A DNA stretch of 64,000 nt from Amphiscolops sp. MND2022 (Eukaryota): the NCBI GenBank assembly GCA_964187785.1, contig OZ076409.1:1550001-1614000 (forward strand), read 5' to 3'. The translations under genes were made by a program, and so were the position numbers. Positions 52,691 to 55,329 of the stretch are shown piece by piece. How positions within the stretch are numbered: the stretch's first letter is position 1; the number at the start of each line of letters is the position of its first letter. The notes beneath the pieces were generated by a model. The model did not search any database. It was not told the DNA's origin and worked only from the letters and a program-made list of their open reading frames with translations.

Positions 52691-53595
52691 GCGCTTCGAC
52701 TTACTTTGTAAAACTCATTTTAGAGTCTTACAAAAGCGATCGCTAAAGAACTAGTTCAAAATTTACTTTTTGCTCGAAACAAAGGAGCTTGGGGGGGGGG
52801 GGCAAAAATCATTTGTTGAATTCGTCGGTGGTTGAAAGAAAGGTAATTAAAGAGTTGAAGTTAAAAGAGAATTCATCTCCGTTAGCAACAGCGGCGCTTG
52901 CAAGAGGCAATAATCTATGTTATTGATTAAGTGAGAGGTTGAAGAGCTTGGCGGCTAAAATGAAAGGTAATTAAGGAGTTAAAAGAGAATTCACAATTCA
53001 TCTCCGTTGGCAACAGCGGAGCTTGCAAGTGGGAATAATCTATGCTATTGATTAAGTGAGAGGTTGAAGAGCTTGGCAGCTAAAATTGAAAGTAATTAAA
53101 AAACTAAGAAGAATTTATTTTCGGTCACAGCAGAGGAAAGGTAAGTTGAACAAATTTGTTTATTGCTAGCTGAAAAGAAAAATATGTTATAGTGAACAAT
53201 AGTTAAATTTGAAGAGGAGGATTGAAGAGATGACCATCAAAAATGAACAAAGACAAAACGTTAACCTTTAACTAACAAAAGAGGGTTTAACAAAAGGTTA
53301 TCTTTTCTTTAATTCAACAAAAGCATTAATTATCTGAAGTAAAGATGACATTTGTTTAGATTGAAAGATACGACGTCACGTGAGTATGACACAGATGGGT
53401 AGGGATTGTTTATTGGGGCTTTTGTTGCTTTCTTCTTTGTTTTCTTCATTTTATCTGCTAGTTTCTGGGCTGTTAGGTCGGGTGTTTTTCGGGTGTTATT
53501 TTCTGTCTTTTGATTTCTACTGACTATGTAACTACAAAGTAGTCCCACCGCCGTTGAACGAAAAGTAAAAATTTTGAGTTTTCTTTTGAGCCAGA

Positions 53596-55329
53596 ATGGT
53601 CCAAAATTTGGGCCTTTTGGGCCAAAATTTTGAGCCAGATGGTCGACTCAAATTGGGGATGGGTTGTATATATTTCAGCGAGAAATCAAAGCCTTATGCC
53701 ATGGTGAAGGACATCAACTCTGCCGTCCCAAGCGAGCACCTCAATGACATTGAGGTCATCTTCGATAGGATGGACAAGTGCAACACCTTCCTCGGCACGC
53801 CCGCATACAACGTCGCTGACGCAGGAAACCCAGCTGATAGGATTGAATACACCACAACGACTTCATATCAGGTGTACAATGATGGCAATATCCTACAGGC
53901 CGCCCCTCAAGACATCGTAGACACAACGATCGTTGCAAAGGTAGCCGGGAACAGGACCACCGTCATCCAGTGCCAAGAAGCCGCTGGTGTCGACCCAGTA
54001 GATGCTGTCATGTTACCAGCACAATTTGGAGGATTTGATCTACCTTCACTGGATGCAACAAACAAGGCATTAGTTGGGATGATAAACACGATTTACCCAT
54101 GTGCTAACACTACAATCCTGGGGACGTACCACAATATCATCAACAACACGAATACGATTTCAGACATGACTTCAGCCTATGTGCGTGGATTTCTTTATTA
54201 TTTCGCACAAGTGATGAAGGATTCAATCATTGCCACAGGCGTTGGCGGTGCAGTGGCGGTTGACGCATCCGCCTTAGCCGCCGGACAGCCAGCCGCCGCT
54301 GTCGTTGACGGGCTAGTAGGTGTAAACACATCTACATGGATGACTGCCATCACGAGTCAGACTGCAGCTGGAATGTACTGGGGGAATGGAATTGGGAGTA
54401 ACGATATCCTTGTTGACGCAATGATGAACGCTAATTTCCCAGTTTACAACATTCAAGTAACTGTAGGTGGAGCAAACTATGTCTTAACACCGTGTTCAAT
54501 CACCTTCAACAACCAGAATGCCCTTCCATACCAGGCATATACGATTGACCCAGCTGTTACTATCGCACATGCCGCCGCCGGTCTCCAATGGCCTGCAGCA
54601 CCACCCAACGCCGTAACCATCCTATCCAGCATCCTCCGCATCGCATCAAAGAACAATGAGCGAGAGAATGCTACACAAGGACTCGCAATTGCGCTACGAC
54701 TTGTGACGGAATCTCGATTCGTTGGCGCAGCTGCAGCTGCGGGTGCAAATGGTTTGAGGATCAACAATTTGATCTACTACACAGGGCTACAGGTGCGACG
54801 ACCACTGTACACTCACAGAGCCCTAGCAGCTTTGACCTACAAGTCTACCACGATGGACCTGCCCCCCAACTTGAGAGTGATGTCACTGTCACAGACAGCC
54901 AAGAGTGCTACAGGAATCATAACTGCTAGCAACCTGTTTGGTTATATCAGCGCCACATCCTGCCAGCTGATGAATTGCAACGCCCAACTCATCACATCAG
55001 CGGCCCCAGGCAATGCCAACGCAGTTGGCATCCCCGGACAAAGACTCGTCATGCAGTTGTTCACATTTTCATTTGACAACACGAAGATCGACGCCATGTC
55101 CCAGGCCGAAAGACGAGTTGCCCAGGAAACTTTCAATATCCCACTGAATGTCAAGTTCAACAAGTTCATCTATCGATGGCTTGCTGGAGGCTACCCCTGG
55201 CACTACGCCGGAGTGCGATTTCTCTGCAACATGCGGATGGGCGCCTTCCTCGAACTTGTCATAAAACCACCAATTTCATGTGGGCTACCACGAGTTTTCT
55301 TCCTCGCGCAAAGTTTCAGGTTTGGGTAG
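53596..55329 (+). CDS. Antisense ORF, probable endogenised dsRNA (toti-like/Ghabrivirales) virus capsid fragment
   Basis: 577 codons without stops, Ala/Gly/Asn/Thr-rich and clearly higher in GC than its flanks. ILRIASKNNERENATQGLAIA recalls toti-like capsids (from memory, not searched). Flanked by the direct repeat gagttttctt. Confidence 0.55.
   Translation: MVQNLGLLGQNFEPDGRLKLGMGCIYFSEKSKPYAMVKDINSAVPSEHLNDIEVIFDRMDKCNTFLGTPAYNVADAGNPADRIEYTTTTSYQVYNDGNILQAAPQDIVDTTIVAKVAGNRTTVIQCQEAAGVDPVDAVMLPAQFGGFDLPSLDATNKALVGMINTIYPCANTTILGTYHNIINNTNTISDMTSAYVRGFLYYFAQVMKDSIIATGVGGAVAVDASALAAGQPAAAVVDGLVGVNTSTWMTAITSQTAAGMYWGNGIGSNDILVDAMMNANFPVYNIQVTVGGANYVLTPCSITFNNQNALPYQAYTIDPAVTIAHAAAGLQWPAAPPNAVTILSSILRIASKNNERENATQGLAIALRLVTESRFVGAAAAAGANGLRINNLIYYTGLQVRRPLYTHRALAALTYKSTTMDLPPNLRVMSLSQTAKSATGIITASNLFGYISATSCQLMNCNAQLITSAAPGNANAVGIPGQRLVMQLFTFSFDNTKIDAMSQAERRVAQETFNIPLNVKFNKFIYRWLAGGYPWHYAGVRFLCNMRMGAFLELVIKPPISCGLPRVFFLAQSFRFG

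Follow-up and report, generated by a model that had tools for sequence, protein, structure and literature searches.

Evidence for a young insertion of toti-like virus ORF1 sequence in a decayed, duplicated Ty3/gypsy-like element of Amphiscolops sp. MND2022

Introduction

How does a long, uninterrupted reading frame come to lie inside a retroelement whose own genes are broken, and does its intactness mean that it is in use? The question is raised by a stretch of 64,000 nucleotides (nt) from Amphiscolops sp. MND2022 (GenBank assembly GCA_964187785.1, contig OZ076409.1, positions 1,550,001 to 1,614,000, forward strand), hereafter called the window, in which a decayed Ty3/gypsy-like element with long terminal repeats (LTRs) carries such a frame in its interior. 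A reading made from the letters of this DNA (the sequence-only reading) had taken it for a non-retroviral endogenous viral element (EVE), namely capsid sequence of a toti-like double-stranded RNA (dsRNA) virus. With a probability of roughly 0.8, we consider the insert to be a young germline integration of complementary DNA (cDNA) copied from part of open reading frame 1 (ORF1), the presumed capsid gene, of a toti-like virus whose clade is otherwise represented by a few metagenomic contigs.

Results and discussion

An insert with an empty site in the same genome

The limits of the insert can be read from a second copy of the whole locus, which is found inverted on the same contig at a distance of about 60 kb. 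The two copies are collinear over window positions 38000-67530, far beyond both LTRs of the element, and the second copy is therefore a segmental duplicate and not the product of a separate transposition. The duplication comprises at least 29.5 kb (window 38000-64000 and on to window-equivalent 67530, against G000:C1:1654001-1681168); its arms are 97-99% identical, and the match runs to both ends of the compared sequence. In the interior of the element, 152 of the 14,447 aligned sites are substituted between the copies (1.05%); there are also 22 insertion or deletion (indel) events, a number obtained after two alignment-end artefacts had been set aside. In the sibling copy, the equivalents of window positions 53585 and 55294 are directly adjacent, so the insert is present in one arm only. 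This comparison with the paralogous empty site fixes the limits of the insert at 53586-55293 (1,708 nt). The start given by the sequence-only reading, 53586, is correct; its end at 55291 has to be moved to 55293.

Features of the insert are as follows.

53586..55293, + strand: insertion whose source is the ORF1 (putative capsid gene) of a toti-like dsRNA virus, with both ends of the gene missing, recognised by the empty sibling site, base composition and homology to ORF1 of the metagenomic contig L011
53590..55329, + strand: stop-to-stop open frame of 579 codons, from the ORF listing
55294..55329, + strand: final 12 codons and stop of this frame, which belong to the retroelement and are not viral, since they align to the sibling and to family copy L029

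Four copies of the element family were compared by hand from their listed flank matches, and all lack the insert: the gap between the flank matches measures 36-52 nt in three of them, and the fourth leaves no room. L029, which was checked by alignment, has no insert either. The presence/absence comparison among sibling elements that had been recommended for this locus thus finds the insert missing from the duplicate, 1.05% diverged, and from the other family copies. The possibility raised together with the EVE proposal, that the frame is a standard part of all family members, disagrees with its absence from the sibling and the family copies examined. In a protein search of the genome the insert locus itself matches at 100% identity, and the next best match has 34%.

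We also considered a deletion in the sibling instead of an insertion here, and rejected it: recombination between the 10-nt junction repeats would leave a single unit, and two are found in the sibling as well as in the outgroup L029. Insertion in the window copy is the parsimonious reading.

The insert differs from its surroundings in composition. Its guanine plus cytosine (GC) content is 0.50, against 0.385 for the remainder of the element interior; along the open frame the profile stays at 0.46-0.52, and on either side it lies at about 0.34-0.42. All 568 codons of the insert are open, whereas in 2,000 mononucleotide shuffles the longest open run reached at most 219 codons, with a mean of 115. 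The frame lies on the + strand, and the gag, protease, reverse transcriptase, RNase H and integrase of the element, typed by Pfam, lie on the - strand, the frame being thus antisense to the element. In these respects (GC-richer, open throughout, antisense within an LTR element) the sequence-only reading described the segment well. From its first ATG at 53596 the frame encodes 577 amino acids (aa) identical to database protein P0002, a product recorded from a 147-kb contig and predicted by a gene caller in another public record. The insert is integrated in a chromosome: it is situated within a 104-Mb contig, between the integrase and the 3' accessory ORF of the element, and both flanks continue into the retroelement.

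Relationship to toti-like viruses

The protein encoded by the insert frame (P0001) served as the query for searches. An exhaustive phmmer search over 1.84 billion protein representatives returned, besides P0001 itself, four relatives (P0003-P0006; 697-1,047 aa, expectation (E) values 2.3e-12 to 2e-5, 24-32% identity), all of them recorded from contigs 3.7-9 kb in length. Of 204 pattern matches among metagenome contigs, two were confirmed, and one of these, L011 (Ga0206688_10607838; 5,952 nt), connects the family to a virus. Two long intact ORFs fill this contig. ORF1 (78-3380; 1,100 codons) matches P0001 with a BLASTP E value of 5e-13 and 101 identities in 454 columns; ORF2 (3381-5951), which is open to the contig end, contains the Pfam family RdRP_4 (E 4.6e-12; 46.1 bits at a cut-off of 22) with its GDD motif. 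Because the insert product is homologous to L011 ORF1, and ORF2 of that contig is an RdRP_4 polymerase, the insert derives from ORF1 of a toti-like virus. Its classification as a non-retroviral EVE of this origin is therefore supported by sequence homology, in agreement with what had been proposed for it: the match to L011 ORF1, the RdRP_4 domain in ORF2 and the absence of the insert from the sibling all point the same way.

Homology between the insert product and the ORF1 products of L011 and P0003-P0006 extends over about 450 residues, and 30 columns are invariant across the seven aligned sequences (insert protein and relatives). The relatives are 697-1,100 aa long, and in L011 the polymerase follows; the window copy has neither end of ORF1 and no polymerase. 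Compared with the viral homologues it is shorter by about 80-290 residues at the N-terminus and by about 230 at the C-terminus, which bears out the suspicion that it is truncated on both sides. The viral contigs have a GC content of 0.47-0.54, close to that of the insert and unlike that of the host element.

In the protein collection, the polymerase nearest to that of L011 is P0014 (RdRP_4, E 8.2e-19), which is recorded on a contig of 6,557 nt. The contig of the ORF1 homologue P0004 has the same length, a coincidence that is suggestive only. A search for named relatives of the polymerase found only two unnamed proteins.

The family has no described member in the collections that were searched. 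Pfam contains no family for P0001 (E up to 10), for P0003-P0006 and L011 ORF1 (E up to 1), or for the ORFs of two sister EVEs (E up to 0.01). Among PDB sequences, the single sequence found no meaningful match and a profile none at E up to 10; one row at chance level was all that the Pfam and PDB searches returned. In a word-indexed search the single-sequence query returned only itself, and the profile query only P0006. The viral contigs of IMG/VR gave 80 and 2 pattern matches, none of which was confirmed, and the ESM Atlas had no usable match for P0005.

A separate observation concerns the expression of L011. At 3378-3385 its two ORFs meet in the same frame, parted by a single TGA, and the first in-frame ATG of ORF2 is found about 57 codons downstream. 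This arrangement suggests that ORF2 would be expressed by stop-codon read-through rather than by frameshift.

Is the product a capsid?

In Totiviridae, the capsid protein (Gag) is encoded by the ORF that precedes the toti-type polymerase, in genomes of about 6-7 kb. The source ORF1 of the insert shares with Totiviridae Gag its place upstream of such a polymerase, the genome size of about 6-7 kb and a length of 700-1,100 aa. Judged by gene order alone, the ORF1 product is thus probably a capsid protein. Similarity in sequence is missing: Pfam connects the two neither at E up to 10 (P0001) nor at E up to 1 (relatives), and no match to the described coat families was obtained with Pfam or with the PDB profile. 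We take Totivirus_coat and LA-virus_coat to be the Pfam families of Totiviridae Gag.

Structure prediction did not help. AlphaFold models reached a mean predicted local distance difference test (pLDDT) score of 30.7 with a 7-row alignment and 37.7 with a 13-row alignment, and both are unusable. The Foldseek check that had been recommended for the capsid claim was run with the second model; neither BFVD nor PDB returned a row at E <= 0.001. The best BFVD row (E 1.2e-3) is unnamed; the one ranked second is a putative capsid of a chrysovirus (E 9e-3, template modelling (TM) score 0.16), which we do not count. A few coat proteins of dsRNA viruses appear among the weak BFVD rows, with TM scores of 0.16-0.21, and are likewise not counted as evidence. 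In the PDB, the same model found nothing better than E 3.5. The part of the capsid claim that stands is thus the position upstream of RdRP_4; support from coat families or from the fold did not materialise, with no Pfam match and with models of pLDDT 30.7 and 37.7.

Order of events and mode of entry

The two copies allow the history of the locus to be arranged in time. At least seven frame pieces make up the pol region of the element, whose lesioned state had been recognised in the sequence-only reading. Five of the seven terminal stops of these pieces and all seven upstream bounding stops are common to both duplicates. Since the insert is present in one duplicate only, the element was dead before the insert arrived, and the insert is younger than the duplication. 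Further, the LTRs of the element differ by 3.5% and the duplicates by 1.05%. The order was accordingly integration of the element, decay, segmental duplication and, at last, viral insertion.

The junctions have neither a poly(A) tract nor a target-site duplication. A tandem 8-nt unit brackets the insert, and it is already present in the sibling and in L029; because the sibling has this unit in its empty site, it does not qualify as a target-site duplication. The left junction has a peculiar structure.

53586..53623, + strand: left-junction filler, composed of imperfect repeats, both direct and inverted, of the neighbouring insert sequence 53624-53642 (families D1-D3; inverted pairs I1, I3 and I4)

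The filler forms the first 38 nt of the insert, and the sequence that it repeats the next 19 nt. The element flank (53568-53578) shares an 11-nt word with the insert (53624-53634). Only from about residue 16 onward does the product clearly resemble viral proteins.

On these grounds we propose the following route. A cellular reverse transcriptase would have copied plus-strand RNA of the virus into cDNA. End joining at a chromosomal break would then have captured a fragment of this cDNA, with templated filler at the junction. The lack of a target-site duplication, the lack of poly(A) and the repeat-rich filler at the left junction all argue for capture by end joining.

Intactness does not require selection

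The sequence-only reading contrasted the intact insert with the lesioned pol around it, and mentioned domestication of the protein as an alternative. The contrast cannot serve as a sign of selection. As five of the seven terminal stops predate the duplication and the insert postdates it, the difference between insert and pol is one of age and not of constraint. How many lesions should an unconstrained insert have accumulated? Of all single substitutions possible, 3.1-3.6% would turn a codon of the frame into a stop. At the age of the duplication, expressed as half of the inter-copy divergence, about 9 substitutions are expected, and hence about 0.3 stops. In the same time about 1.3 indels are expected; 17 of the 22 observed between the copies are not multiples of three, which gives about 1.0 frame-breaking events. 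The chance of an intact frame is thus about e^-1.3 = 0.27 at the maximum age and is higher if the insert is younger. Selection is therefore not needed to explain the open frame, and an intact frame beside a decayed retroelement should not in itself be taken as evidence of it. The frame would be open because the insert is young, and the insert is at present most likely a neutral passenger.

Weighing the alternatives

A different route of entry is suggested by the literature: the viral piece might have been acquired by template switching of the element's own reverse transcriptase in a virus-like particle and have arrived as a transposon-virus hybrid. This is the mechanism proposed for LTR-associated EVEs in the part of 10.1101/127498 available to us, and the position of the insert in the interior of the element would agree with it. 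Against it stands the insert-free sibling. It is a segmental duplicate, alike far beyond the LTRs and in most pol lesions, and the element was thus resident and broken beforehand; the LTR divergence of 3.5% exceeds the 1.05% of the duplication and makes the LTRs older; the insert runs against the direction of the element, and nothing is lost where its two flanks meet in the sibling. Because the element was dead before the insertion, template switching during retrotransposition of this copy is highly improbable. Even less credit can be given to the idea that the insert is non-viral or unreal, that is, a host or transposon gene acquired by metagenomic contigs or a chimera of assembly. It may draw on the fact that the family has no named member or recognised fold, and on the single contig with a polymerase that was read directly. 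All relatives outside this genome, however, come from contigs of 3.7-9 kb, and L011 is filled by two long intact ORFs, the second of them a polymerase. The genome copies, by contrast, are all fragments, some with stops or frameshifts, and in the examined ones a GC content of 0.485-0.506 exceeds the 0.38-0.41 of the flanks. The junctions are clean to the base against the sibling, and an identical protein is recorded from the 147-kb contig, although that record may not be an independent one. We regard this explanation as next to negligible.

Two further explanations would give the insert a function. By analogy with mosquitoes, it might act as a heritable memory, a template from which a transcript started in the 5' LTR, or a cluster transcript, would be processed into PIWI-interacting RNAs (piRNAs) or small interfering RNAs (siRNAs) against the viral plus strand. 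The 5' LTR is upstream on the - strand, and a transcript started there would carry the insert, which is oriented against the element, in antisense. The region contains at least two retroelements on the same strand, the genome has taken up this virus clade repeatedly, and in Aedes, as far as the accessible parts of 10.1101/127498 and PMC6580184 go, EVEs among LTR elements in piRNA clusters give antisense piRNAs. The analogy is incomplete, however. The element was already decayed at insertion, which makes the promoter activity of its LTR uncertain. According to the same part of 10.1101/127498, EVEs and LTR elements are linked most strongly where their orientations agree, and the piRNAs run antisense to EVEs and transposable elements alike. 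Here the EVE is on the + strand and the gypsy-like and BEL/Pao elements are on the - strand, so a cluster transcript antisense to the transposable elements would be sense to the insert. It may also be that the host is no arthropod: the genome gave no match to the arthropod cuticle domain (PF00379), nor to the mollusc haemocyanin domain (PF14830), in searches without a positive control. Moreover, we are dealing with one young insert, whose nearest exogenous relative on record is only 32% identical. A role in small-RNA defence thus appears unlikely. We consider it very unlikely that the frame is a domesticated host gene, kept by selection, whose truncated capsid-like product of 577 aa from the ATG at 53596 would interfere with assembly of related viruses. 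The 579 codons open amid a broken pol may seem to call for such an explanation, a gene caller did predict the identical protein in another record, and other members of the family are partly open (393 codons on C13, 330 in two pieces on C2). Nevertheless, an intact frame is expected by chance with a probability of about 0.27 or more in an insert that postdates the duplication. For a ratio of nonsynonymous to synonymous substitutions (dN/dS), neither orthologues nor close paralogues were found, the best other copy in the genome being 34% identical. The protein is devoid of both ends of the viral ORF1, its final 12 residues are read-through into retroelement DNA, and the GC content of the insert has not shifted toward that of the host.

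Several points weigh against the account that we prefer, a neutral, recently captured piece of toti-like ORF1. The link to viruses consists of one contig read directly (L011) and one coincidence of contig size, and the assignment as capsid has no direct support from Pfam, PDB or fold. End joining is deduced from a single junction pair at one locus, and the left filler could instead be viral sequence with internal repeats of its own. Finally, the first ATG has a purine at -3 and G at +4, which counts in favour of a domesticated frame.

Relation to described EVEs

Toti-like EVEs and associations of EVEs with LTR elements are well described, judging from the available parts of PMC6580184, 10.1101/127498, PMC4573495 and PMC5497376. 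The insert agrees with described toti-like EVEs in being a fragment of a dsRNA-virus gene in a host chromosome, in its retroelement-rich setting and in the presence of multiple independent fragments per genome. It differs from them in coming from a clade in which no member is named, its nearest relatives being 24-32% identical, and in having a paralogous empty site within the genome that provides base-exact junctions. Unlike the EVEs of arthropod hosts, it belongs to a genome without a match to the arthropod cuticle domain, subject to the missing control mentioned above.

Closest in setting are the EVE-LTR associations in piRNA clusters of Aedes (10.1101/127498; PMC5497376), as far as their accessible parts describe them. 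There, too, viral fragments are found in Ty3/gypsy-type elements, and the present region likewise combines BEL/Pao and gypsy-like elements. In Aedes, EVE and transposable element mostly share their orientation, template switching has been proposed and antisense piRNAs have been measured (10.1101/127498, same part). In the present case the orientation is opposite, and the insert entered a resident, dead and duplicated copy of an element. Particular to this case are the orphan source clade, the base-exact junctions, the entry into a dead duplicated element and the orientation opposite to that element.

The locus records a clean and datable entry of an RNA-virus gene into an animal genome, with both junctions fixed to the base, which is rare for non-retroviral EVEs, and it shows a case where viral cDNA entered a retroelement copy that was already resident and dead. 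Together with the older fragments described below, the insert ties a small toti-like clade known only from metagenomes to this animal lineage as its likely host. A bolder proposal can be formulated: a probably non-arthropod animal has very recently endogenised, by end joining with templated filler and not by LTR template switching, a capsid-gene fragment of an orphan toti-like virus that still circulates, and already uses it against the virus as antisense RNA, transcribed from the LTR of the dead element, or as truncated capsid. In its entirety we find this proposal quite doubtful, with about the standing of a small-RNA role or slightly less. If it were true, the repeated fragments would record a long association of host and virus and would assign a host lineage to metagenomic viruses that have none.

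Other fragments of the clade in the genome

A protein search of the genome gave nine matches at six to seven places. Besides the insert, they include the following older fragments, on the whole more decayed.

G000:C13:37674894-37678976 (L002): open piece of 393 codons followed by a frameshifted continuation, adjoining a frame of non-LTR-type reverse transcriptase
C7:42140700-42144251 (L003): decayed piece with stops and frameshifts, extending further toward the C-terminus
C2:42427935-42435245 (L008/L009): two neighbouring 330-codon pieces of the C-terminal part
L005 and L006: two short pieces elsewhere in the genome

Every copy in the genome is a fragment, and some contain stops or frameshifts. 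For the fragments for which it was computed, the GC content is 0.485-0.506, against 0.40-0.41 in the flanks. As several fragments of the same protein family are located at six to seven places, the genome has acquired parts of this virus clade on more than one occasion. In a tree of eight rows, of which two cover less than half of the columns, the three EVEs included are united with support 100/100 and stand apart from the five metagenomic proteins. The window copy has a long branch of its own, and together with the other fragments of the genome it stands on a separate long branch from the metagenomic proteins.

Polymerase-derived EVEs were sought as well. The L011 polymerase found none in the genome, and a search with the RdRP_4 family returned only L038 (G000:C3:90786113-90786430, - strand), a weak match (29.6 bits, E 1.6e-4) that is interrupted by two stops and might represent a toti-like fragment derived from a polymerase gene.

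The host element and its surroundings

The element that harbours the insert consists of the following parts.

63203..64000, - strand: 5' LTR, running past the window end to window-equivalent 65462 (self-comparison)
56352..62150, - strand: decayed gag, protease, reverse transcriptase, RNase H and integrase in at least seven frame pieces (Pfam RVT_1, RT_RNaseH, Integrase_H2C2, Integrase_p58_C and Asp_protease_2)
47036..48373, - strand: accessory ORF at the 3' end of the element, typical of its family, coding for a coiled coil and a MATH domain of TRAF type (Pfam TRAF-mep_MATH, E 2.6e-21)
44739..46977, - strand: 3' LTR (self-comparison)

The LTRs are 96.5% identical over 2,263 columns (44739-46977 against 63203-65462). 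A partial tandem copy of the first ~770 nt of the 3' LTR is found at 43975-44741, and each LTR contains an array of 86-nt tandem repeats (window 45639-46441 and, in the extension beyond the window, 64187-64860). The gag, on the - strand, was recognised as a zinc-knuckle region. In the 660-codon frame that bears the reverse transcriptase (59012-60994, - strand), about 450 residues before RVT_1 have no Pfam match at E <= 0.01.

The accessory ORF has 445 codons and occupies the 3' place usual for env; it belongs to the setting and not to the viral insert. It is a standard part of the family: among 2,127 first-look candidates in the genome, at least 95 copies were scored, at 71-88% identity, and some of them are fully open. 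Motifs of the MATH_TRAF_C type have been noted in the giant gypsy-like Burro elements of planarians, according to the available part of PMC6431247. We also asked whether the insert disrupts a conserved ORF of the element, such as env, and rejected this, as no long ORF occupies the corresponding position in L026 and L029, two copies of the family.

Elsewhere in the window, at 19056-24818 (- strand), an uninterrupted frame of 1,920 codons encodes a BEL/Pao polyprotein with the domains DUF1759, aspartic protease, reverse transcriptase, Peptidase_A17, integrase and DUF5641. To our knowledge, BEL/Pao elements are restricted to animals, and the presence of an intact one points to an animal host; the reverse transcriptase of the host element gave no lead on the lineage in the ESM Atlas. 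This one looks like a potentially recent element, and with the gypsy-like element it makes at least two retroelements of the region on the same - strand.

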